58,804 nt of DNA from Heterodontus francisci (Eukaryota): positions 11,687,391 through 11,746,194 of the forward strand of contig NC_090410.1 in the NCBI RefSeq assembly GCF_036365525.1, read 5' to 3'. The position numbers were made by a program, and so were the translations under genes. The notes under the pieces are model-generated. The model was given only the letters and a program-made list of their open reading frames with translations. It did not search any database and was not told where the DNA came from. This document shows positions 1,768 through 56,894 of the stretch, in pieces (position 1 is the stretch's first letter; every line of letters begins with the position of its first letter).

Positions 1768-1899
1768 GTTCTGAAGAGTCACTGACCTGAAACGTTAACG
1801 CTGCTTCTCTCTCCACAGATGCTGCCAGGCCTGCTGAGTATATCCAGCATTTCTTGTTTTTATTTCAGATTTCCAGCATCTGCAGTATTTTGCTATTAT
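1768..1899 (+). mobile_element. Penelope-like pLTR fragment (family A) with a minimal hammerhead motif
   Basis: GTT-CTGAAGA-GTCactGACct-GAAA-CG-TT-AAC at 1768-1799, followed by the CTCTCTCCACAGATGCTGCC...GCAGTATTTTGC body shared with four other loci. Confidence 0.7.
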
Positions 1900-2884: not shown

Positions 2885-4145
2885 ATTTACAGCAGGACCT
2901 GTCCATTTACTTCCATTTTCACTTCCAGGGTTAGGTCCCTGCTTATCACCATTGTTAAGAAAACCAAGACATTCATTCTTAATCCATATTCCACACGCCT
3001 CGCGTTCACTTTGTTCACAATTTCCTGTACGGCCTCTTCTGACTCTGCAATCAGTGCAGTGCCATCTGCATATCTCAAATTGTTGATGTTCAACCTACCA
3101 ATATTTCAACCTGGATAGAACTTCTATGTCTCTGAAGATAGCTTCAGCGTACAGGGACATCCCTGATTCACTCCTCTTTTGAATAGGAATCTGTCTGACA
3201 AGCTGCTATCAAGTCTCATTATTACTGATTGCTTCCAATATAGATTCTGAATTCTCCTTTTATCATTTCTGTCAATTTCTAATTTATCTAAATACTCCAT
3301 TATTTTCTGATGGTAGACTCTAGCAAATGCCTTCTCAGTCTATAAAGCATATATACACAGGTTTTTGTGCTTCCATATATCTTTCGATCATTACCCAAGT
3401 TAAAGATGCCCTGTCTTGTCCTGGTCTATATTCTTCACGTGCTCTAACTTTCGCATGCAATACTCTCATATTATGCCTTTTCTCCAGTTTTTCTATTTCC
3501 TTGCAACAGTCTTCATACCACCTTTCCTTGCCTGCACCCCCGCATGTTTTTTCTTATCTGCCTTTCTACATCATATTTTTCTTTATTCTTATTCTGTCTC
3601 CTTTTCTCCATTAGATCTTGTATTTCATCAGTCACTCATTCTTGATGTTTCCTCATCCTCTTTCTTAGGGACCTTTCAGTTACTGTATATTTCATGCTCT
3701 ATTTCAACCTTTCCCAATGCCTTTCTATTGTTTCCTCCTCACTAAGATATTGCACTGTCCCTTCCTGAGGTAAAATGTGAGAGTAACCACCACAGCATAA
3801 CCTCTTCATCACATCTTCTTCTCTCAGTCTGTCTAAGTTGGCTTGATCTTTCATGCGATTTCTTTTTGGGATTTTCAGCCTGATCTTTATCTTCATTACA
3901 AGCAGGCAGTGATCTGAATTGATGTCTGCACCTGGGTAAGTGAAGGCATTCTTGATGCTGTTCTTGTATCTTTCATTAATCATCAAAAAATCTATTTGAT
4001 TTCTGTAAACATCTCCTGGACTCTTCCAGGTGTAGTGTCTTCTTGGATGTTGTTTGAAGAGCATATTCAAGATGACCAAGTAGTTTTCCTCACAGAACTG
4101 TATCAGGTGCTCACCTCTGCTGTTCTTCATTTCTAGTCCATAAGC
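2885..4145 (-). mobile_element. Decayed RTE/BovB-like LINE of a second family (APE endonuclease and RT remnants)
   Basis: Antisense translation gives YTWKSPGDVYRNQIDF...YPGADINSDH (AP endonuclease) and NINNLRYADGTALIA (RT YADD motif, mutated). Confidence 0.8.
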
Positions 4146-4409
4146 TCTATCTAGGCCCCTCATAATTTTATACACCTGAATTAAATCTCTCCTCAGCCTC
4201 CTCTGTTCCAAAGAAAACAACCTCAGCCTATCCAATTTTTCCTCACAGCTAAGGTTGTGAAAGGGATATCTTCCTTCTCGTTAATGCGTAGGTATCAATT
4301 CGGATGAAGCTACTCCAGTCCCAGAGGGTCTGCAATCAACCTTACTTACTACTCACTCATCTCTGCAGCCTGACCCTGTGTGGTACCTCACCTCAGTTGC
4401 CTTTTCTTG

Positions 4410-6081: not shown

Positions 6082-7170
6082 TTCTTTCTTTTGGGCCTCC
6101 TTATCTCGAGAGACAATGGATACGCACCTGGAGGTGGTCAGTGGTTTGTGAAGCAGCGCCTGGAGTGGCTATAAAGGCCAATTCTAGAGTGACAGACTCT
6201 TCCACAGGTGCTGCAGAGAAATTTGTTTGGCGGGGCTGTTGCACAGTTGGCTCTCCCCTTGTGCCTCTGTCTTTTTTCCTGCCAACTACTAAGTCTCTTC
6301 GACTCGCCACATTTTAGCCCTGTCTTTATGGCTGCCCGCCAGCTCTGGCGAACGCTGGCAACTGACTCCCACGACTTGTGATCAATGTCACAGGATTTCA
6401 TGTCGCGTTTGCAGACGTCTTTAAAGCGGAGACATGGACAGCCGGTGGGTCTGATACCAGTGGCGAGCTCGCTGTACAATGTGTCTTTGGGGATCCTGCC
6501 ATCTTCCATGCGGCTCACATGGCCAAGCCATCTCAAGCGCCGCTGACTCAGTAGTGTGTATAAGCTGGGGATGTTGGCTGCCTCGAGGACTTCTGTGTTG
6601 GAGATGCGGTCCTGCCACCTGATGCCAAGGATTCTCCGGAGGCAGCAAAGATGGAATGAATTGAGACGTCGCTCTTGGCTGGCATACGTTGTCCAGGCCT
6701 CGCTGCCATAGAGCAAGGTACTGAGGACACAGGCCTGATACACTTGGACTTTTGTGTTCCGTGTCAGTGCGCCATTTTCCCACACTCTCTTGGCCAGTCT
6801 GGACATAGCAGTGGAAGCCTTACCCATGCGCTTGTTGATTTCTGCATCTAGAGACAGGTTACTGGTGATAGTTGAGCCTAGGTAGGTGAACCTTTGAACC
6901 ACTTCCAGAACGTGGTCGCCAATATTGATGGATGGAGCATTTCTGACGTCCTGCCCCATGATGTTCGTTTTCTTGAGGCTGATGGTTAGGCCAAATTCAT
7001 TGCAGGCAGCCGCAAACCTGTCGATGAGACTCTGCAGGCACTCTTCAGTGTGAGATGTTAAAGCAGCATCGTCAGCAAAGAGGAGTTCCCTGTTGAGGAC
7101 TTTCCGTATTTTGGACTTCGCTCTTAGACGGGCAAGGTTGAACAACCTGCCCCCTGATCTTGTGTGGAGG
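6082..7170 (-). mobile_element. Young 5'-truncated RTE-clade LINE with an open RT C-terminus and a CCHH zinc finger
   Basis: Uninterrupted ORF with LLFADDAAL, FTYLGS and CSTCGRVCHSRIGLYSHSRRC; AAAG-type tail; TSD AACAGGTAT at 6073-6081 and 7171-7179. Confidence 0.92.
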
Positions 7171-8567
7171 AACAGGTATAACACCCCAATATCCTACCTG
7201 TAATCCTATAAACTTTCTGGTATTTACCCTGAAACTATAGCCCCTGCTCTGCATAGTATGTAGTTTCCCAGTGTTCCTTTCCTTGTCTCCTTGGACTCCA
7301 GTTCTGTGTGAAGTTAACAACTCTGAACTGGGAGCCTCTGTAAGAGCTCATCTTTACTTGGGCTTCACGTCAAATTTGGCCAGCACAGACTAACCTGAAC
7401 TAAACCGAGAGATCGCACAAAGGGCAGCAAGTTCAGTGATGGGGCACTTCAGACAGCGTCCTCAAATCAGCTCAGCAAACTAATCTCTGGGCTTTGATTT
7501 CAATAATGGAAAATTTTAACAGAATGATAGTAATTACAGCATCGGAAGAGGACATTTGACCCCCAGTGCCCGTGCTGGCACTCTTCTGCTGTAAACCCAC
7601 ATAGATCCTTTTACATTGCTCCTTTTCAAGTAATTATCCCATTCCCTTATTAAATGATGTTGTTCTCTCTACTGCAGTAAGCCACTTGTGGTGAAGCATC
7701 TCATGGTCTAAAAGCCATCAGTTCAAGAACCTTCCTTTTCACTCCCCCTTTCCTGGACCAAGGCCCCAGAAAGGTCCTACAAACAGCAGTGAGAGAAATG
7801 ACCAGATAAACTGTTGATCTGGTCATTTACCAGATACTTCCTAAGACCTATTGGCTCAGGTATCATTCTATTCCATTTGTTCAACTTGGCGTCTCAGCTG
7901 AGTACAGATGGGCAGGTGGGTAATGTCTTTGAGCCCCACTGTAAGTGACGGCTACATTTGTGTGGGTCTTTCTAGTTTTGCAATGAATGGCTGACCACAC
8001 AATGAAAGATACGTTTTATTTATTATCCTGAGGGTGGCTTTCAGTTCACTGCGATTCTGAAGTCAACAGAGACAGGATAGAATACAAACTCAACAGTATT
8101 AAACAGCCATCTAAGACATAAGGGACCAAGTTACTAGGATCAGTTTTATTTTGACTGTTGGCACAAGAGATGTATCCGTTGCTTGCAATAGTACAAGAAA
8201 AATAGTCAAGTAGTGATGACTATCAATGTCTGTATTTAACCCTATTCAGTTATCTATTTATCTAAGTATCAGCCAGTTGGTAGCACTCTCACCTCTGAAT
8301 GAGGAGGCCATGGGTTTAAGTCTGTCTCCAGGACTTGAGCCCAAAAATCAAGGCTGACACTCAGTTCAGTACTGCGGGAGTGCTGCATTGTCGAAGGTGC
8401 TTTCTTTTGGGTGAGATGTTAAACTGAGGCCCCATCTGTTCTCTCAGGTCATCATAAAAAATCCCATGGCACTATTTCAAAAAAAGCAGGGGAGTTATCC
8501 TTGGTATCTTGGCCAACGTTTCTCCCTAAATCAACATTACAAAAACAAATTATCTGCTAACTCACAT

Positions 8568-9892: not shown

Positions 9893-10191
9893 GGCTGTAA
9901 AGAGCTTTGGGACGTCCTGAGGTCTTGAAAGGTGCTACGTAAATGCATGTCTTTCCTTATTAACTGTACAGTAGATCTATTTGATAGTTTATAACTTATA
10001 TCGCAGTGTGATACGACTGCTTGTTCTACCTTCCACTATACCAAAGTCAAGAATATCGCATGAAGACATGTTATATGTCCAATACATAGAACTTATAGCA
10101 CAGAAATAGGCCATCTGGCCCAAATGGTTAATGCCAGTGTTTATGATCCATGCAAGTCTCTTCATAGTTCTTCATCTAACCTTATCAGAGT

Positions 10192-10386
10192 AAGAAAAGC
10201 AAAATAATGCAGATGCTGGAAATCTGAAATAACAACAAAAAATGCTGTAAAACACTCAGCAGGTCTGGCAGCATCTGTGGAGAGAGAAGCAAAGTTAACG
10301 TTTCAAGTCAGTCTGAAACTGTTAACTTTGCTTCTCTCTCCACAGATGCTGCCAGACCTGCTGAGTGTTTTCCAGCACTTTTTGTG
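10192..10386. mobile_element. Fold-back Penelope-like element, family A
   Basis: Head-to-head arms meeting at about 10310; perfect 11-bp TSD CTTATCAGAGT (10181-10191 and 10387-10397). Confidence 0.85.
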
Positions 10387-10410
10387 CTTATCAGAGTTAT
10401 CTTCTATTCC

Positions 10411-10854
10411 TGAAAAAAGAGACATGCTGTTGAAGCTTTTTGTCTAACACTCATCAGGACAAATGCAAGAATGCCAAATTTCAAACAGAGCAACAATTTA
10501 AACTGCATGAGAAAAAGGTGCTGTTTGGTTGGCAAGTCGACTCTGATTGCTCAAGGCATTGCCACGGAGAATGCACCAGGGAGCTATTGTCCCACACGCT
10601 TTTGTTTAATTCAGAAATGGTGCAATGCTTGGACATGTTCCTTTTGTTTTGAATTGAACAAAAGTGTGGGGGCAAAACAGTTCCTTGGTGCATTCTCCAT
10701 GGCAACGCCTCGACCAATCTGAGTTAGCTTGCCAACCAAAGAGCACCCTTTTCTCATGCAATATAAATTGTCTCGCCCTTTGAAATTTGGCATTCTTGCA
10801 TCTGTCCTGATGAGTGCAAGACGAAAAGCTTTGACAGCATGTCTCTTTTTTTCA
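10411..10854. mobile_element. 444-bp fold-back element, family B, with a hammerhead motif in each arm
   Basis: Arms of about 10411-10617 and 10647-10854 are imperfect reverse complements around a ~30-nt spacer. Confidence 0.88.
10802..10837 (+). ncRNA. Minimal type-I hammerhead ribozyme motif
   Basis: Stem I CTGTC/GACAG, core CTGATGA (10807-13), 2-bp stem II GT-gcaag-AC, GAAA (10823-26), palindromic AAGCTT stem III, UH = TT (10831-32). Confidence 0.7.
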
Positions 10855-15850: not shown

Positions 15851-16230
15851 GTTTCCACCTGAGGTTGCAGACAGGACCTCAGTTTAACATCTCAGCTGAG
15901 TTTGGCACACCCACAATACTGTACAGAAGTGTCAGCCTAGAATTTTTCTTTAGGCCTCTAGAGATTGACTTGAACCTACAATCTTCTGACTCAGAGTGCA
16001 ACCCACTAGCCACGGCTGATTACTGAAGACAGACAAAGGGAACAGATAGAAAAGTAGGGTCAAGTCCAAATTCAGGGTGGAGAGCATGCTTGTTACTTTT
16101 GAAACTGCAATAAAAAAGTATGAATGCTTTCACAGAAGATACACAAGTGTAACATGGTTTCATAGTTGGACTATGCAAAACCCTTTCCATTAACTTGATG
16201 TGTTCTTTATCCAATGAGTTTCTCTTTGAT

Positions 16231-16388
16231 ATAACAACAGAAAATTCTGGAAACACTCAGCAGGCCTGGCAGCACATGTGGAGAAAGTTAACATTTCTGA
16301 ACTGAAACTTTAACTCTGTTTCTCTCTCCACAGATGATGCTGCCAGGCCTGCTGAGTATTTCCAGCAGCCGCAGTATTTTGCTTTTGT
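16231..16388. mobile_element. Fold-back Penelope-like element, family A (decayed)
   Basis: GGAAACACTCAGCAGGCCTGGCAGCA ... TGCTGCCAGGCCTGCTGAGTATTTCC inverted arms. Confidence 0.75.
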
Positions 16389-18332: not shown

Positions 18333-19675
18333 TAGAATTAGAATATTACAGCGCAGTACAGGCCCTTCGGCCCTCGATGTTGCGCCGATCATCTGACCTA
18401 CACTATTCCATTTACATCCATATGTCTATCCAATGGCCACTTAAATGCCCTTAAAGTTGGCGAGTCTACTACTGTTGCAGGCAGGGCGTTCCACGCCCCT
18501 ACTACTCTCTGCGTAAAGAAACTACCTTTGACATCTGTCCTATATCTTTCACCCCTCAACTTAAAGCTATGTCCCCTCGTGTTTGCCATCCTCATCCGAG
18601 GAAAAAGACTCTCACTATCCACCCTATCTAACCCTCTGATTATCTTGTATGTCTCTATTAAGTCACCTCTCCTCCTCCTTCTCTCTAACGAAAACAACCC
18701 CAAGTCCCTCAGCCTTTCCTTGTAAGACCTTCCTTCCATACCAGGCAACATCCTAGTAAATCTCCTCTGCACCCTTTCCAAAGCTTCGACATCCTTCCTA
18801 TAATGCGGTGACCAGAACTGCACGCAATACTCCAGGTGCGGCCTCACCAGAGTTTTGTACAGCTGCATCATGACCCCGTGGCTCTGAAACTCGATCCCCC
18901 TACTAATAAAGGCTAACACACCATATGCCTTCTTAACAGCCCTATTAACCTGGGTAGCAACTTTCAGGGATTTATGTACCTGGATACCAAGATCTCTCTG
19001 CTCATCTACACTACCAAGAATCTTCCCATTAGCCCAGTACTCTGCATTGCTGTTACTCCTTCCAAAGTGAATCACCTCACACTTCTCCGCATTAAACTCC
19101 ATTTGCCATCTCTCAGCCCAGCTCTGCAGCCTATCTATGTCCCTCTGTACCCTACAACACCCTTCGACACTATCCACAACTCCACCGACCTTCGTGTCAT
19201 CCGCAAATTTACTAACCCACCCTTCTACACCCTCATCCAGGTCGTTTATAAAAATGACAAACAGCAGTGGCCCCAAAACAGAACCTTGCGGTACACCACT
19301 AGTAACTAAACTCCAGGATGAACATTTGCCATCAACCACCACCCTCTGTCTTCTTTCAGCTAGCCAATTTCTGATCCAAAGCTCTAAATCACCTTCAACC
19401 CCATACTTGCGTATTTTCTGCAATAGCCTACCGTGGGGAACCTTATCAAACGCCTTACTGAAATCCATATACACCACATCCACGGCTTTACCCTCATCCA
19501 CCTGTTTGGTCACCTTCTCGAAAAACTCAATAAGGTTTGTGAGGCACGACCTACCTTTCCCAAAACCGTGCTGACTATCGCAAATGAACTTATTCTTTTC
19601 AAGATGATTACAAATCCTGTCTCTTATAACCTTTTCCAACATTTTACCCACAACCGAAGTAAGGCTCACAGGCTC
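18333..19675 (-). mobile_element. Young 5'-truncated CR1 (HER1-like) LINE with an open RT frame, nested in an older CR1
   Basis: About 425 uninterrupted codons (DFSKAFDKVPH, GVPQGSVLGP, KFADDTK); TTCTAA-type tail; short ACAGT duplication. Confidence 0.92.
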
Positions 19676-19679
19676 ACAG

Positions 19680-20985
19680 TATAGCAAAGGTTCACTAAAT
19701 TGGTCCCTGGGATGAAGGGGTTGTCCTATGCTGAGAGGCTGAGTAAACTGGAGTTTAGGAGAATGAGAGGCGATCTCATTGAAACATACAAGATTCCAAA
19801 GGGGCTGGATAGGGTAGACACAGAGATTGTTTCTGCTGCTCAGGGAATCTAAAACAAGGGGACATAATCTCAGGATAAGAGGCCGATTATTTAGGACTGA
19901 AATGAGGAGAAATAATTCACTCAAAAGGGTTGTGAATCTTTGGAATTCTCTACTTCAGAGGGTTGTGGATGCTCCATTGTTGAATACATCGAAGGCTGGG
20001 ATAGACCGGTCTTTGGTCTCTTGGGGAATTGAGGGATATGGTGAACAGGCAGGAACATGAAGTCGAAGCCGAAGATCAGCCATGATCATATTAAATGATG
20101 GAGCAGTTTCGATGAGCCCTATGGTCTACTCCTGCTCCTATTTCTTGTGCTCTTGGGAGGACAAACAAGGCAAAGGAATGCACAATAAATGGTAGGATAT
20201 ATATAAGTTAGACCACAGCTAGAATACTGCACACAGTTCTGGACACCACATTACAGGATCAGAAAGGGTACAGAGCAGATTTACAAGGATGTTGACTAAG
20301 AATGGAGAATTTTAGCTGTGACAAAAGATTATAGAGGCTGGAGTTGTTTTCTTTGGAACAGAAGAGGCTGAGGGGAGATTTAACTGAGGCGTATACAATT
20401 AGGAGGCCTGGATAGAGTGGATAGGAAGGATCGGTTTCTCTTAGCAGAAGAGTCAATAACTAGGGGGCATAGGTATAAAGTAATTGGTTGAAGGATTAGA
20501 GGGGAGCTGAGGAGTAATGTTTTCAGCCAGAGGGTGATGGGGGTCTGGAACTCACTGCCTGAAAGGGTGGTAGAGACAGAAACCTTCATGGTATTTATAA
20601 AACACTTGACTGTGTACTTGAAATGCTGTAACCTATAGGACTATAGCTTGAAAGTGGGATTAGACGGAATAGCTCTTTTGGCCAGAGCAGAAATAACAGG
20701 CTGAATAGTCGCCTTCTGTGCTATAAATATTTTTATGTGTTAGTAATTGTTTGAGAGGCAGGAGAGAGTGTAGAGCTGTAGGAAGTGTAGTACTCAGATG
20801 ATAAGTGGTGTTGCTCAGGCCTCAGCTTTTCACTATATATTAATGATCTGGCTGAAGGAACAGTTGTATATACAAGTTTCCAGCTAACAGTTGGAAGCAC
20901 AGTAAGTTACAAAGGGATATAGACAGATTACATGAGTGGGCAAAACTGTTAGATAGCATTCAATGTGAGTAAATGTGACGTAATC
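19680..20985 (+). mobile_element. Stacked CR1 3' fragments
   Basis: Repeated RGDL...VWNSLP-type C-terminal segments and tails. Confidence 0.75.
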
Positions 20986-24507: not shown

Positions 24508-25335
24508 TGTCATGAAGACCCCCACCTGCCAAGAATGAGGAATATTAATTTTGTCATATGAACATTAACTTTAAACTGTTGCTGGAATGAATAGATGACT
24601 TGTTTAAAGAGATCAGCAGTGGCTGGAAAATATTTGCATTCCAAGAGACAGTTGCATCAGAAAATGGGAACTGCTCAATTAACAGAAATTGGTCTGGGCA
24701 ATGGTGAGCCACATCTGGTCGGTGTAAGAGACAGCACTACACACCTCCCCCCCCCCCCCCCCCCCCGCCCCGCCCCGCCAAGAGCTCTGAAATCCACAAA
24801 CCACAGGAGCATTTGTTCCAAATAAAGGGTTAGTCACATGACTAACTGTTGGCCAACTTGGAGTTTTAAACTGCTCACAGAACATCTGGGGTCAGACTGC
24901 AGATTTCAACTGAACTTGGAACAGAGCCTCTCTCTCTCTCTTTCACTATCTCTGGACCCACTGAAGTCACTTAAACCTCAAGAGAGAAAAGGCTCCTACA
25001 TCGAAACAAGTTTTAAAGCATGCACTGGACTCCAATGGAATGGCAAAAACTCTTCAGATATTGCCTCAAACTTTATTTTTCTGTCTCTATTTACATGCGC
25101 GTATTGTGTATGCATGGGCGCGTCATGTAACCGTAGGCGTCAACCGAATTTCAATCTTTTTTCTTTAAAGCTAAGAAAACCTGTTTGTGCTGGTGTCTGC
25201 CATATAATTGGAAAGCGGTGAACAAGGATCACCAAGGGGGAGCTCAAAACACTGTTTAAAATTAAACCCAGTTACAGTAAGACCTGGTGAAGCATGAAAG
25301 GGAACCCTAGACCTCTTTCTCACTTGGTCGTAACA
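24508..25335 (+). mobile_element. LTR (Gypsy-type) in TBCB intron 4
   Basis: TGTCATG...CGTAACA termini; homologous to 28684-29602; no TSD. Confidence 0.88.
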
Positions 25336-27213
25336 CCTTCTTAACCTGTCCTGCTACCTTCTGGGATCTGTGGACAAGGTCCCTCACTTCTTCTACACTT
25401 CTCAGTATTTTCCCATTAATCGTGTATTCCTTTGCCTTGTTTGACCTCCCCAAATGCATCACCTCACACTTCTCCAGGTTGAATTCTAGTTGCCACTTTT
25501 CTGCCCATCTGACCAGACCATCAATATCTTCCTGCAGCCTACAGCTATCCTCCTCGCTATGTACCACACGGCCAATCTTTGGGTCGTCTGCAAAATTCTT
25601 GATCATGCCCCCTACATTTATGTCCAAATCGTTAATATATACCACAAAAAGCAGGGGACCCAGTACTGAGCCCTGCGGAATGCCACTGGAAATAGCCCGC
25701 CAGTTGCAAAAACACTTGTCAACAATTACCCTTTGTTTCCTGTCACTGAGCCAATTTTGTATCCACTTTGCTGCATTTCCCTGGATCCCATGGGATTTTC
25801 TTTTAAGTCTGCTATGTGGGACCTCGTCAAAAGCCTGGCTAAAATCCATCAATTGCACTACCCTCATCTATCTTCCTTGTTACTTCTTCAAAAAGTGGGG
25901 CAGCACAGTGGCGTAGTGGTTAGCACCACAGCCTCCAGGGACCCGAGTTCGATTCTGGGTACTGCCTGTGCGGAGTTTGCAAGTTCTCCCTGTGACTGCG
26001 TGGATTTTCGCCAGGTGCTCCGGTTTCCTCCCACAGCCAAAGACTTGCAGGTTGATAGGTAAATTGGTCATTGTAAATTGCCCCTAGTGTAGGTAGGTGG
26101 GTGGTAGGGATTATGGGATTACTGCAGGGTTAGTATAAATGGGTGGTTGTTGGTCAGCACACACTCGGTGGGCTGAAGGGCCCGTTTCAATGCTGTATCT
26201 CTAAATAAATAAATAAAATTCAACCAAGTTGGTCAAACCAGATCATACCTCAACAAATCCATACTATCATTGATTAACCTGTGCCTTTCTAAGTGGCAGT
26301 TTATCCTCTCTCTCAGAACACATTCCAATAACTTGCCCACTACTAAGGTTAGACTGACTGGCCTATAATTATTCGGTCTATCCTTCGCTCCCTTTTTAAA
26401 CAGAGGTACAACGTTAGCAGTTCTCCAATCCTCTGGCACCACACCTGTATCCAGTGAGGACTGGAAAATGATGGTCAGACCTTCTGCTTTTCCTCTCTTG
26501 CTTCTTTAACAACCTAGAGTACATTTCATCTGGCTGTGGTGATTTATCAACTTTCAAGGATGCTAATCCCATTAATACTTCCTCTCTACCTATGTTTATC
26601 ACATCCAATACTTCACACGCCTCCTCAACTACAATATCTGCATTGTCCCCTTCTTTTGTGAAGACAGACACAAAGTATTCATTAAGAAACATATCAACAT
26701 CTTCTGCCCCTCCACATAGGTTACCTTTTTGGTCTTTTATGGGCCCTACTCTCTCCTTAGTTATCCTCAATGTATTGATAAAACATCTCTGGGTTCACCT
26801 TGATTTTGCTTGCCAATATTCTTTCATGCCCTCTCTTTGCTTTCCTAATTTCCTTTTTGATTTCACCCCTCCACTTTCTATACCTCTCTCGGCTTTCTGT
26901 AGTATTGAGTTCTCGGTGTTGGACATAAGCTTTCCTTTTCTGCCTCATCTTACCCTGTAGCTCCTTGACATCCAAGGAGCTCTATATTTGGCCGTCTCAC
27001 CCTTTTTCTTTGTGGGAACATGTTTACTCTGAACCCCTTGAATCTCCCCCACTGTTCTAACACTGATTTACCTTCAAGTAGCTGTTTCCAGTCCACTTTC
27101 GCTAAATCACTCCTCAGTTTAGTAAAATTGGCCTCGCCCCAATTGAGAACTCTAACTCCTGTTCTACCTCTGTCTTTTTCCATAATTATGTTAATTATGA
27201 CTGAATTATGATC
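25336..27213 (-). mobile_element. CR1 ORF2 fragment interrupted by an HE1 SINE
   Basis: DFSQAFDEVPH, GIPQGSVLGP, VPEDWRTANVVPLFKKG. Confidence 0.88.
25897..26216 (+). mobile_element. HE1-like V-SINE
   Basis: A/B boxes, V-domain, TAAA tail. Confidence 0.88.
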
Positions 27214-35139: not shown

Positions 35140-36526
35140 CTATTGTAAAAAATGAACAGCAAGGTTTCAAAACAGGTTCATCACAATAAACAGAAACTGG
35201 ATCCTGGGTTTGCATACCTTAGTCTTATTTTAAAATTGGTACAAATTTTACTTTGCAGAGTAGTATAAAAATTTTAAAAAGCTATGCTTCCTCATCAGTG
35301 GGGCCATATGCCTTAAATCTAATTCTTAACTATTCTCTTCATTGCATTCTTCTAGCCAGTGTTCCCTCTAACTTTTTTTGTGGTGTGCAACTTGTTCATT
35401 TCAATGCATGGTATCTTTTAAATGTTTTAGCAGCCGTGCATGCGAATTATCTTAAACAGAACTGAGCAGCCTGCATGGTACCTTCTGGGTTGCTGCACAT
35501 CCACACACCTTAGGGGGAACATAGAACAGCAATAGGTCATCTAGTCCCTCGAGCCTACTCCATCATTCAATGAGATCATGGCTGATCTGCTACCTAACTC
35601 CATAACAGAAGCATTGCTTCCAGCAGCCTTCTACTTTAAAAACATGACAAGCTGGACACTGCACAGGCAATCTTATCTCCTTGATACTTCTTTGACCAAG
35701 CTTTTGGTCAACTAACCTAATATCTCCTTATGTGGCTCGGTGTCTTGTTTTATTTTAATAATGCTCCATGAAGTGCCTTGGGACATTTTATTATATTTAT
35801 ATAGTGCCTTTAATGCAAGCTGTTGTTGATTCAACAGCCAGAAAATATGAGTGATCAAGGACTTCCCAAAACAACAGATGCAAGGTATTGTGAAATTTCC
35901 AAGGCAGGGAAACAAATTATACAGACTCTGGGCAAATTAGCATCTTAACCTTGTCAAAGCCCTTTTTGCAAAAAATACTTGTGAAAACACTTTAAAAGAC
36001 AACATTAAAATAAACACTTTCTCCAAATCTTTCAAAAAGTGCAAAGACATAACATCCTGAACACCAGTGTACTCTGTTCTATTCCCAACCTGAGTAACTT
36101 ATGTATTAAAGGGAACTTTGGTTGTGTGTGGCCTCTTTGTTGTACTGCGTGGTACACTCCAGACTGCTGTGCACTTGCTCAGCTTACAGTAAACAATGAC
36201 TCCAACATCACACCACTAATCCTATATCCAGTTATATTTAGCTCCCAATCACTACTAGATCACACCCATCAAGTTACATACTTACTTTCTTTAATACTCC
36301 TAAAACTATTAAAATAAATTGTTTGGTTGATAGGAAAGCTAAGCAGAGAGAAGCAATCAATACCTCTGCCTTACTATCTTGCTTGGCTTCTGAACCTGTT
36401 CTATTCCAATCTTTAACTTTCCCCCCAATAATACATTTAAAATTTTGATGTATCCCACCAGATACCTATTCTCTTTTCTCATATCACAAATGCCCAATCC
36501 CAGTAATCAGCTGAAGCACCTTTCCT

Positions 36527-37080
36527 AAATAAAAACAAGGTGCTGAAAATACTCAGCATCTGCAAAGAGAGCAGAGTTAACGTTCCAGATCTGGGACCTT
36601 TTATCAGAACTGGCAAAGGTTAGAAATGTTTTAAGCAAGTGGAGCAGGAATGGGGGAAGACAACAAAAAGGACAGCGTGTGATAGGGCAAGAGAGATTAA
36701 CTGACAAGGAGGTCATGGGGCAAAGGGAGAGTACTAATGGTATGGTGAAAGAGCAACACCATTAGAACACTCCCTTTGCCCCATGACCTCCTTTTCAGTT
36801 AATCTCTCTTGCCCTCTGCCTCATCAGGCACCGTCCCTTTTGTTCTCTTCCTCCCCCCTAAACCCCAACCGTCCCTGTTGTTCTCTTCTCTCCCACCTCC
36901 ACTTCACTTGCTCAAAACCTATTACATTTCTAACCTTTGCCAGTTCTGATGAAAGGTCACAGACCTTAAACGTTAACTCTGATTCTCTCTCCACAGATGC
37001 TGGCAGACCTGCTGACTATTTCCAGCACTTTCTTGTTTTTATTTCAGATTTCCAGCATCTGCAGTATTTGGCTTTTATAT
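36527..37080. mobile_element. Longer fold-back Penelope-like element, family A, with a mutated hammerhead in each arm
   Basis: Inverted arms; AGTT-CTGATGA(36946-52)-AAGGTCacaGACCT-TAAA-CGTT-AACT; degenerate 15-nt TSD (36512-26 and 37081-95). Confidence 0.8.
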
Positions 37081-37499
37081 TGGAGCATCTTTGCTTCTGG
37101 TCCAAGGTCAGGGCGTTCCCCCCGTGCAGCAATGCACAGGACAGCACACAGCTTTCAAGGTGGGCCCAAGCCAGTGTTTTGTCCCTCTAATTTTCTCCAA
37201 ATAAATGGCACGCCATTCCATTCTAAGCATCTGCCTTAAATCAATATCGGATGTTCTCCTGAGGTACTGGTTGAGGTAGAGGCGATGGATCTGCACATAA
37301 TCTGGGAATGTCTAATGCTGACACCATGCACTCCAAGTGGAAAAATATTCCCATCTTCCAATGTATTCCATATCCTGATGCATGTAAAAAACTATTTTTT
37401 AAGTGGTGACAACTAGACAGCTTTGAACCGTGAAGAACATAAGACAAGTTATAGAAAGCAAAAAAGCTGCACATAGGCACTTACTAAAAGATTCTACAG

Positions 37500-38270
37500 C
37501 ACTTAGAGCCCACGGTCTACGCAGCTTGCACCGGGCAGCCGGTTTAAAACTTCACCCGTCAATGAAAGCTAGCATAAAGAGTGCAGGCGCACCTTAAACC
37601 CCGCCCATGTCAATCTGACCCCGAATCTCCGCCCACTTGACCGCGCCCCTAAACCCCGCCCATGCCAAGCTGCGCCTGCCCATGACTCCGCCCACGACTC
37701 TGTCCAACTCCAGCCGGCCCCGCCCCTGAACTCCGACCATGGCAACGCCCACGTCTAACCGACTCCGCCCCATGTCCTGACCCCCACGGGCCTTCGGTGT
37801 GCCTCTCCCAAGTTTTATTTCGCGCTCCCCGGGGCCATCACTCACTCACTTTCAGCTCGGACACGGTGATGCCGCGGTTGAATCTTTTCTCCGAGACAAA
37901 CGAAGTCAACGAGCTGGTGATCCGCACCTCCACCGCCGGCGCCGACACCACCTTGTACGACTCCTCCTCCATCTCAGTCAGCTTGGCCGCACTGCCGGCC
38001 TGCGAGCGTGTCCTCCGGCTCCGGTGGGCGATGCGCGGGCCTCGGTTTTCAGGCGGGGCCGGAGGGCGGCTAATGGGGCTCTCTCAGCGGGGAAGTTACT
38101 GGCTAACGGGCGGCGCGATTTAAATCTTTGTGCCGTTTCCTCTCGCGCAGCCCGATTCCAGAATCTTCCAGCACCGGTGGTTGGATGATCGGAAGGCCAC
38201 GCCTACCGTCCAATCAAGAGAAGACCAGGAGGGGCACGTGTTCATTATGTTCGTCTCCATGGTAATTATT
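37500..38270 (-). promoter_or_regulatory. TBCB CpG island and promoter
   Basis: CpG-dense; clustered CCGCCC boxes at 37600-37770; CCAAT 38210-14, CACGTG 38235-40, X-box-like GTCTCCATGGTAAT 38253-66. Confidence 0.8.
37850..37972 (-). CDS. TBCB: TBCB exon 1 (coding part)
   Basis: MEEESYKVVSAPAVEVRITSSLTSFVSEKRFNRGITVSELK then GTGAGT; the six exons sum to 747 nt (248 aa plus stop). Confidence 0.95.
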
Positions 38271-50049: not shown

Positions 50050-51118
50050 ATCATTGGGGGGCTGTGCCTTCAGCTGCCTGGGCCCTAATTTCTGGAATTC
50101 CCTCCCTAAACTACTTCTTCCTCCTTGAAGATGCTCCTTAAAACCTACCTCTGACCAAGCCTTTGGCCATCTGCCCTTATATCTCTTTAGTGGCTCAGTG
50201 TCCAATTTTGCTTTATAACCCCCCTGTTGAGAGCCTTGGCATGTTTTATTATGTTGAAGGTGCTATAAAGAAGCTATTGTTGTTGCAAGTTCATAATCCT
50301 ACCACCTTTGGGGAGGGGTTCACTCATTATTGTTTAGCTATTCCTGTAGGTTAGATGCACAACAATTTGTATTTATATAGCACCTTAAACGTGGTGGAAC
50401 GTCCCAAGGTTCTTCACAGGTGCATTAGCAGACTAAAGAAGATAAAAGGACAGACGACCCAAAGATTGGTTGCAGAGTTAGGTTTAGGATCATCTTAAAA
50501 AGGTGAGAAAAGCGAAGAGGCTTAGGGCGCAAATTGCTGAAGGCACAGCCGCCAATAGCGGAGCAAAGAAAATTGGGGATGCGCGAAGGGCCAGAATTGG
50601 TGGAGTGCAGAGACCTTGGAGGGTTGTAGGGCTGGTGAATGTTACAGAAATAAGGGAGATTACATATGGGTACAAACTACTCCAAGAACCTGTGTTACTT
50701 GTGCTGTGATTTTCTAGTACTCGGAGAATGTTAGCAAGCTCTTCTCAAACAGCACTTTGCAACGGCTTATTCTCAACTAACAACGACAACTTTCACTTCT
50801 ATAGCACCCTTAATGTAATCAAACATCCCAAGGCATTTCGCAGTAGAGTTAGCAAATAAAATTTGACACCGAGCCGCATAATACTGGGAGATACTCCGAG
50901 ATACTGGGACAGGCTGGTCAAAGAGCTGGGTTTTAAAAGCAGTCTTAAAAAGAATGAAAAGTAGAGGCTGAGGGGTTTAGGAGGGGAATTCCAGAGATTA
51001 GGGCCTAGGCAACTGAAGGCATAGCCACCAATGGTGGAGTGTTTAAAATAGGCCAGAATTGGAGGAGCGCAGAGATCTTGGGAGGGTTCTAAGGCTGGAG
51101 GAGGTTACAGAGATAACT
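50050..51118. mobile_element. Cluster of L2 3'-tail fragments on both strands
   Basis: Three pieces homologous to 31395-31842. Confidence 0.65.
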
Positions 51119-51151
51119 ACTCTTGTCAGTCTCTGCACCTCCCATACTCAC

Positions 51152-52429
51152 CACTTTACCTGGCCGTGCCCATGTGCAAATAAAGCCTTCTTGGCAAGCA
51201 GTGACTATGCAGTCCTCCAAGAATATCAACACCGTTAGTCTCTCGTGTGCAATCTTTTTACAGACCAGAGGCTCCAGCAAGGGCACCTCGTCCATGCGGG
51301 GACACAAAGTGGTCCCCAAAGTCTTCGCTGAGTCAAGTTTGTTTCTCAGGACCAGGTTGAGCTTGTCATTACTCTTGCTGATGACGTGCCCGATGCTGTG
51401 GTTCCGCTTGTGGTCTTTCTCCACGCTTTTATCTTTGCGCTCATGGAGTGTCAGTGTTGCAAATTTGCTGATGCTGAAGGGGATGCCCCCGTCCGTCGCG
51501 TGGGCCTTGCTGTTGGCATTCGTAACAGCCGGGTGTGGCAGACTGTTCGACCGGGAGAGCGAGTGCGGGATGGAGTTGACCATGCTGGCTTCCAGCGTGA
51601 GACTGCTGGTGTGGCTTCCGCAGCTCAGGGAGCCAGGGATGGCTGTGTTCACCACGTTTGTATGCGTCCGAGCTCGAGAGAGGGGCTGATGGGGGAATAG
51701 AATGTCTTCCGTCAAATCCCACAGGCAGAACTGAGTGTCCTGCCCTACGGAGCCAAACCGGTAGGTTACGTTTGTTGCCTGGCCATCCGTGGAGTTGTGC
51801 TTGGAGAGTCGGGATAAAGTGCTGTTTGTCCGGTTGCGGGTGAAGGGGGCATGCTCCTGAAAGTCCTCGTCACTGCCACTGAACTCTGGCGGGTCCCCAT
51901 CGTCAACGCTGCTCGTGTAAGGGTCAAAGGCCACCACGCTGACCCAGGACTTGTGGCCATGACCCCGAGCGATCACCCGGCAGTCCCAGAAGGACCAGAC
52001 CGTCACCAGGTCGTCCTCACCCCCCGTCACAATGTACCTGCCGTCTGGACTCCAGCACACGCACAGCAGCCCCCCAAAGTAGCTCTTCATCACACCGTAC
52101 AGCTCCATCGAGTCGAAATGGAAAACCCTCAGGCTGCCGTCTTGACTGGCGCACGCCACGTGCTTGCCATCAGGGGCGAAGGCGAACTCGTGGAGGGCGC
52201 CCTCGCCGACTGACCATTTCAGCAACGGGTTCCGGCTCGACTTGCTTTTGCAGGTGTACACTGCAAAGCCAGGCCCCTGTTTAAGCGGCTGGTAGTGGGG
52301 GGCGGTGGTGCCACATGGGTGCTCTACATTGTAGAGGTACAGGTTGCCACTGGTGTGGGCGACAAGGAAGAGGCTCTCTGACTCTGGCATCCATTTCAAG
52401 CAGGTCACCTTGGTCTTGTCGATGAATCT
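51152..52429 (-). CDS. DMWD: DMWD-family exon 3 (WD40 repeats), 426 codons
   Basis: RFIDKTKVTCLKWMPESESLFL...SYFGGLLCVCWSPDGRY...PLLEPLVCKKIAHERLT...WARPGKV; AG at 52430-31, GTGAGT donor. Confidence 0.92.
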
Positions 52430-56390: not shown

Positions 56391-56625
56391 ATCTGACAAT
56401 CCTTGGTGATGAATTCCATAAAAGGTGCAACACAGAAAGCGGCCGTTCGGCCCATCTGGTCAATACTGGCGTTTATGCTCCACACGAGCCCCCTCCAATT
56501 CACTCCATCTCACTCTATCAGCATTGCACAAAGCTGACTGGAAAAAGATATTGACCCATGGTGGATTTGAATCAAGGAGTCTTGCTCCAGTTACCACAAA
56601 GCAAATCAGGATTTAGTTTGAAGCA

Positions 56626-56806
56626 AATAAAAATAGAAAGTGCTGGAAAAACTCAGCAGGCCTGGCAGCCTCTGTGGGGAGAGCAGAGTTAAGCTGAAAC
56701 ATGAACTCTGCTTCTCTCTCCACAGATGCTGCCAGACCTGCTGCTTTCTTCCACTACTTATTGTTTTTACTTCAGATTTCCAGCATCCACAGTATTTTGC
56801 TTTTAC
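56626..56806. mobile_element. Fold-back Penelope-like element, family A
   Basis: Inverted arms meeting at about 56695; 14-nt TSD with 2 mismatches (56612-25 and 56807-20). Confidence 0.82.
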
Positions 56807-56894
56807 TTTAGCTTCAAGCAGATGCAGAGGTTTCAATAATTCAAGACAACAGATTCAAGAGCATTGTGCAAGAGTTTGTTTATAGAGATTTCAT

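Follow-up and report, generated by a model that had tools for sequence, protein, structure and literature searches.

How does a head-to-head palindrome come to lie, as one unit, within a single perfect direct repeat? The question is raised by positions 10192-10386 of a 58,804-nucleotide stretch of Heterodontus francisci DNA (contig NC_090410.1; hereafter the window, meaning the whole stretch analyzed), where a pair of inverted arms is enclosed by an 11-bp duplication.

Anatomy of the insertion at 10.2 kb

Both strands of the window were searched for the 11-mer CTTATCAGAGT, which was found only at 10181-10191 and 10387-10397, the two borders of the palindrome. The initial annotation took these repeats as a target-site duplication (TSD). 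We compared TSD candidates with random boundary pairs under two scorings, +1/-2 (2,000 pairs) and +1/-1 (1,000 pairs), and the claim was borne out: the repeat matches at 11/11 positions (p = 0.0005 and 0.001), with zero matches among the 2,000 random pairs. The arms have a 71-nt core with 94% complementarity, are identical at 62/66 positions and have one private base in common. With the element on the minus strand, the tail is at the left side. Where exactly the tail-less arm ends, near 10386, is blurred by several bases, since the TSD is similar to the next bases of the element; this likeness may stem from base pairing between the RNA and the target end.

The insertion interrupts an older host repeat. 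Removal of the insertion and of a neighbouring palindrome (10413-10851) restores this repeat, which then aligns across both junctions with three paralogues (scores 72, 52, and 49, versus shuffle maxima of 38-45; alignments extending to query position 222-229). The host-repeat paralogues, at about 65-70% identity, are too loose to tell one TSD copy from two, and the closest one (56.4 kb, score 71) stops at the junction. The neighbouring palindrome, 15 bp away in the same host repeat, represents a second palindromic family. Its arms (181 nt, 85% complementary) have symmetrical outer ends without a tail; the window has no further copy of it, and no significant TSD was found around it. Near 10806-10835, a palindromic helix III, a weak helix II and core words like those of a hammerhead were noticed by eye, and these were not matched by the descriptor used below.

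Copies of the family in the window

A BLAST comparison of the window with itself gave five copies of the family (1768-1898, 10192-10386, 16227-16386, 36527-37078, and 56626-56806; Table 1). The copy set of the initial annotation was therefore incomplete, since the single-arm copy at 1768-1898 had been missed; the other four are palindromes, and the three short ones are similar in size (160-195 bp). Positions along the element are given below as those of the tailed arm of the 36.5-kb copy (the reference). In these terms, the outer ends are at 37076-37079 for arms with a tail and at about 37036-37046 for those lacking one. The tail of 32-33 nt is on exactly one arm in all four palindromes, in agreement with the one-arm extension of up to about 30 nt noted previously, and is also present on the solo copy.

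Table 1. Positions of the features in the window
Feature	Position	Strand	Remarks
Older host repeat fragment, interrupted by the 10.2-kb insertion	10085..10180	.	resumes at 10398-10412 and beyond 10852
10.2-kb copy, TSD copy 1 (11 bp)	10181..10191	+	boundary-pair test
10.2-kb copy, 3 additional bases separating the tail from the TSD	10192..10194	-	
10.2-kb copy, tailed (main) arm: putative 5'-truncated pLTR, from the loop of hammerhead helix II to the long 3' end	10195..10312	-	aligns to reference 36959-37076
10.2-kb copy, tail of the main arm	10195-10226	-	
10.2-kb copy, inverted tail-less arm, reaching from helix II (3' strand) to the vicinity of the short 3' end	10313..10386	+	
10.2-kb copy, TSD copy 2	10387..10397	+	identical to copy 1; boundary-pair test
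Single-arm copy, from helix I to the long 3' end	1768..1898	+	lacks an inverted arm; TSD non-significant
16.2-kb copy, inverted tail-less arm	16227..16297	-	
16.2-kb copy, tailed arm	16298..16386	+	30-nt internal deletion
36.5-kb copy, degenerate TSD copy 1	36512..36526	+	12/15 with 37081-37095 in the second scoring; weaker in the first
36.5-kb copy, inverted tail-less arm	36527..36757	-	
36.5-kb copy, unpaired centre spacer	36742-36757	-	given to the tail-less arm by base composition only
36.5-kb copy, tailed arm	36758..37078	+	longest piece of the family in the window; reference
Predicted minimal hammerhead-ribozyme motif	36942..36978	+	1 descriptor match, 0 in 15 shuffles
36.5-kb copy, degenerate TSD copy 2	37081..37095	+	12/15 with 36512-36526
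56.6-kb copy, TSD copy 1	56612..56625	+	12/14 with 56807-56820
56.6-kb copy, inverted tail-less arm	56626..56692	-	
56.6-kb copy, tailed arm	56694..56806	+	
56.6-kb copy, TSD copy 2	56807..56820	+	

Degenerate TSDs of 14 and 15 nt had also been proposed for the 56.6-kb and 36.5-kb copies. The former stands under both scorings (12/14; p = 0.005 and 0.001), whereas the latter does so only under the second (first scoring, 8/9 with p = 0.07; second scoring, 12/15 with p = 0.009). No significant TSD was found under either scoring for the 16.2-kb copy (p = 0.20 and 0.07) or the solo copy at 1768 (p = 0.20 and 0.19). TSD-like repeats thus clearly exceed chance at two of the five copies (10.2 and 56.6 kb), do so depending on the scoring at one (36.5 kb), and are non-significant at two. 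Since the outer TSD encloses both arms, it argues for a one-step origin of the two, which supports the single-event integration previously preferred to two independent insertions.

Some changes within the arms were also observed. The 16.2-kb tailed arm has lost its 30 nt between two short direct repeats. A CT-rich stretch just after helix I carries a deletion of 3-8 nt in three of the four tail-less arms (36527-36660, 56626-56692, and 16227-16297) and in no tailed arm. A local duplication of about 40 nt in the long tailed arm (36825-36895) is absent from the inverted arm of that copy.

Hammerhead motif and relationship to Penelope-like elements

We searched the window with a relaxed descriptor of the minimal hammerhead ribozyme, the core letters of which are those that we take to be standard. 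The only match was at 36946 (motif 36942-36978), and none was found in 15 shuffles. Features of the descriptor other than the core letters were taken from the account of metazoan hammerheads (PMC4209133). The putative ribozyme consists of helix I (36942-36945 with 36975-36978), the core (36946-36952), an unpaired base (36953) and helix II (36954-36958 with 36962-36966); helix III is palindromic, and the predicted cut is after 36974. No other perfect local stem in the 321-nt arm is as long as helix II, the first pair of which varies in the reads described below (A>G at 36954, T>C at 36966; these are unphased, and pairing is possible). A core mismatch at 36967 is private to the reference copy, as 26,153 of 27,435 reads have G. 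The distance from the motif to the two 3' ends downstream is about 100 and 130 nt.

A plain core pattern gave four unrelated matches and missed the true motif. The Rfam search gave no hammerhead match in the family, only miRNA-shaped matches below the threshold. We rejected a microRNA hairpin, since all of these were far below the gathering score; such matches are attributable to the palindrome.

The motif, together with the published anatomy (PMC3846280, PMC8557442), supports the earlier suggestion of a Penelope-like element (PLE), with the family as the putative pseudo-LTR (pLTR) of such an element. PLE traits found here are the hammerhead in the pLTR, a tail at one end with two classes of 3' ends, an inverted 5'-truncated copy (4/5), and a TSD around the whole unit. 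A MITE or fold-back DNA transposon was rejected on the grounds that the outer ends differ by the tail, the TSD is 11-15 bp, and a single-arm copy is present. PLE membership rests on non-coding features because no autonomous ORF was found. There is no coding part within the five copies, and a Pfam search of 30 of the 50 window ORFs of at least 110 aa for a partner with the single ORF of endonuclease-bearing PLEs (telomerase-like RT and GIY-YIG endonuclease) gave no GIY-YIG domain, only LINE-type RT and endonuclease pieces outside the copies. A protein search with the 41-aa frame of the solo copy gave no longer relative. Partial head-to-tail tandems forming pLTRs are absent from the window; head-to-tail joints are present in runs X14 and X6, among the joints listed. 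A scan of metagenome and viral contigs with a 22-mer pattern gave 0 matches, and the seven loci found with a 20-mer pattern were all rejected as chance, matching 20-21 nt only.

Most of this anatomy has been described in other systems, and thus the finding itself is at the level of annotation. PLE pLTRs carry minimal hammerhead motifs (PMC4209133). Those of metazoans resemble the present one in the short helix I, the unpaired base before helix II and the palindromic positions 15.2-16.2, and they occur mostly as single truncated copies with some opposite-strand pairs 100-700 bp apart (PMC4209133); here, helix II is 5 bp and the ribozyme is a predicted one. Rotifer Penelope elements such as the endonuclease-bearing Pen2a_Av of Adineta vaga have an inverted pLTR, a 31-bp tail on one arm, TSDs of 8-10 bp, and palindromes at the inverted junction (PMC3846280), and the scheme of inverted pLTR, tail, and TSD has been given as general for PLEs (PMC8557442). 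The inverted 5'-truncated pLTR, the one-end tail of 30-40 bp, the TSD around the whole unit (about 8-10 bp there) and the junction palindrome are thus common to these accounts and the present family. In contrast to Pen2a_Av, no ORF is included here, the TSDs are 11-15 bp, the junction palindrome is hammerhead helix II/III and the copy number is far higher. In Poseidon of Anolis carolinensis (PAc), too, a hammerhead precedes, by about 100-130 nt, a pair of 3' ends flanking a tail, and its start site is 111-118 nt past helix II (PMC11167929); unlike in PAc, no ORF start at helix II was found here, a stop following four codons on in the solo copy. The parts of that paper considered here do not treat inverted arms.

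RNA folding of the 3' region gave z values of 0.2 and -2.1 for two copies, which do not support a firm structure. In both, 36994-37002 would pair with 37053-37061 in a 9-10-bp RNA stem, with the short 3' end in a U-rich loop. Two stretches, at 36930-36943 and 36973-36999, resemble splice acceptors (a branch-like word, pyrimidines, and CAG) by what we take to be the consensus. The first ends right at helix I, the start of the single-arm copy, and 265 contigs of run X2 start with unlike flanks at 36944, also at helix I; the second is followed by an ATG, from which a frame is open as far as the end of the tail. In the Penelope element of Drosophila virilis, an intron ends at helix I (PMC4209133).

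Reads of the family beyond the window

Four sequencing runs, the raw run X14 and three contig runs, were aligned to 36762-37600 at 80% likeness. X14 contained 57,612 family reads, with a depth of 32,409 at 36982 versus 0-1 on the unique flank. This corresponds to roughly 58,000-96,000 arms, given an assumed genome of 3-5 Gb and even sampling, although a capture library need not sample evenly. In related organisms B and C, 12/30 and 16/30 bins had depth, and the unique flank at 36.5 kb had no continuous cover; no orthologous empty site was found in them. Loose ends with unlike flanks are found behind 37076/37078 in all four runs, and also behind 37033 in all four, where some of them reflect clipping of reads at an indel in the reference. 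The depth of the tail is 68% of that of the core, which is compatible with a tail-less arm in up to about half of the insertions, an estimate inflated by edge loss. Because 53% of the peak depth is gained between 36939 and 36982, most copies would either start within or at the hammerhead or be divergent on its upstream side; such depth steps can also arise from subfamily divergence or clipping.

For the read joints, 15 of 250 were listed, and opposite-strand joints are given without orientation. No dominant shared centre is found among these 15. The joints listed for run X6 include two opposite-strand ones (36941/37038 with a side of 39, and 36984/37042 with a side of 35); in both, the short side would end exactly at 37076, which fits an inverted piece formed by the tail alone. 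Among the joints listed for X14, 1,230 reads (211 + 512 + 507) join the short 3' end head-to-tail to 36973-36975, with at least three variants of the intervening letters; the span 36973-37043 is a possible tandem repeat of about 70 bp. When an ambiguity of 2 nt is allowed, the short 3' end is thereby joined immediately ahead of the predicted cut site. The joint is absent from those listed for the three contig runs, and it may represent one satellite of about 70 bp or a captured locus. If dispersed, joints of this kind would be genomic evidence of ribozyme cleavage in vivo; for PAc, RNA ends at the cut site were reportedly not seen in RNA reads (PMC11167929).

Junctions between the arms and origin of the palindromes

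In the 10.2-kb copy, the start of the tailed arm is at 36959 and that of the tail-less arm at 36965; the corresponding positions are about 36961 and 36967 in the 16.2-kb copy, and 36965 and 36973 in the 56.6-kb copy. Three of the four junctions are thus in hammerhead helix II/III (36959-36975), and the fourth is about 200 nt upstream. Removal of 3, 7, and about 16 nt from a palindrome centred on helix II would give the three centres. Compared with the read-depth background, the clustering of the junctions is modest (23% of the depth is gained in 36954-36982; P of about 0.04 with n = 4 junctions). The fold-back point therefore does differ between copies, as initially stated, but is not scattered. 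At the fourth junction, near 36.7 kb, the 16-nt centre spacer has 12/16 purines versus 46/183 in the tailed strand; the purine share is 71-74% in the tail-less strand and 25-27% in the tailed strand. This composition (P = 4e-5 versus the whole tailed strand, 0.002 versus its nearest 30 nt) suggests that the tail-less arm extends beyond the tailed arm there, a geometry that suits priming at both nicks of the target more than plain fold-back. The spacer has a 9-nt loop and a 6-bp stem that closes it, and could also be a snap-back loop.

We consider it very probable that each palindrome is one abortive PLE insertion consisting of the hammerhead-bearing pLTR only. As for the route, priming from both target nicks is the most likely one, with about an even chance of being correct. 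The element endonuclease would make a staggered cut of 11-15 nt, and both free 3' ends would serve as primers of reverse transcription. Starting at the far site would give the arm with the 32-33-nt tail, and starting at the near site the tail-less arm. The templates might be two RNAs or two pLTRs of one tandem transcript. Both cDNAs would stall, often in the structured hammerhead, and be joined head to head with the aid of the self-complementary helix II/III; fill-in would then produce the TSD. The anatomy, TSDs, motif, two classes of 3' ends and junction positions used here are from the present data; that the palindrome family acts like the lizard PLE, as well as the manner of joining, we infer. 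For the lizard element, cutting and extension of both strands in vitro, two internal start sites bounding the tail, and a predicted dimer have been reported (PMC11167929). If each nick primes at one of two start sites, one arm would always end at the near site, and two-nick priming thus fits the arm asymmetry more directly than simple fold-back. Priming at both target ends, joining of two cDNAs by short complementarity and a single TSD are also known from LINE-1 twin priming; however, L1 arms are different parts of one RNA without overlap (PMC2912911), whereas here both arms copy the same pLTR stretch. The simplest reading by this analogy is that the two-nick route would be the PLE form of L1 twin priming. 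In a literature search, with most subscription journals outside its reach, no application of twin priming to PLEs and no shark PLE hairpin was found. Taken together, an abortive PLE insertion by two-nick priming is the best overall explanation, and we lean slightly towards it.

The target-primed reverse transcription with fold-back or template switch proposed initially, close to the self-priming idea of PMC3846280, is a strong rival, even if we judge it rather unlikely. A cDNA primed from the far site alone would stall in the hammerhead, its 3' end would fold on helix II or another short stem, copy back, stop near the short end and join the target. This snap-back of one cDNA predicts the same centres, namely the helix-II palindrome less 3-16 nt, and a longer tailed arm at the centre, which is observed in three of the four palindromes; the near-identical 10.2-kb arms with their common private base, and the stem and loop at 36.7 kb, also agree with it. 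However, it leaves unexplained why copying always stops at one short site, a site that head-to-tail joints use as well. The arms of the 56.6-kb copy are identical at only 49/62 positions, below most cross-locus pairs, and the composition of the 36.7-kb spacer, which points to a longer tail-less arm, could not result from copy-back of the tailed cDNA without a later deletion. Private variants are shared in 2/4 same-locus pairs versus 5/32 cross-locus pairs, which does not separate the two models. The one-step origin in the initial proposal thus stands, but its route is not singled out.

Both other possibilities fit worse than two-nick priming or snap-back. The similar sizes of the three short copies, and centres derivable from one palindrome by deletion, would suit a non-autonomous, MITE-like hairpin master copied whole, with later deletion as the only source of the different centres. 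We find this improbable, given the 36.5-kb centre about 200 nt further upstream, the single-arm copy, the lack of a dominant centre among the joints listed, and outer ends that do not form terminal inverted repeats of the same length. A pair of independent insertions at the same position, or an inversion-duplication that a single copy underwent later, would be helped by the abundance of the family (depth of about 32,000 versus 0-1) and by hot spots, the existence of which is indicated by this abundance and by the second palindromic family 15 bp away; with one TSD around both arms, no inner TSD seen, and identical polarity and tail asymmetry in 4/4 cases, such a history is highly implausible.

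The formation of inverted pLTRs and hammerhead cutting in vivo are called open questions in the PLE literature (PMC8557442, PMC11167929, in the parts considered here). The value of the present family is that of a test set, being abundant and having short insertions that fit one read; its junction geometry could decide between two primers and snap-back by computation alone. A more speculative extension of two-nick priming, which we think has only a small chance of being right, is that a PLE dimer primes both nicks at two RNA start sites, with the hammerhead setting where the cDNA stops and pairs. Part of the RNA would be cut by the ribozyme in vivo, and the reverse transcriptase would proceed from the near start site as far as the cut end and then begin anew, giving head-to-tail repeats of about 70 bp in a telomerase-like manner; the family would then be a fossil record, in tens of thousands of events, of the second half of PLE integration. 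The reiterative part is suggested by the 1,230 X14 reads.

Other features of the window

Decayed pieces of LINE-type endonuclease/RT are found on the minus strand at 3702-4280, 6141-7193, 18401-19954, and 25310-25867, unlinked to the palindrome family. An open frame at 51092-52429, also on the minus strand, has a WD40 stretch of about 95 codons and is probably an exon or a retrocopy of a WD40 gene.
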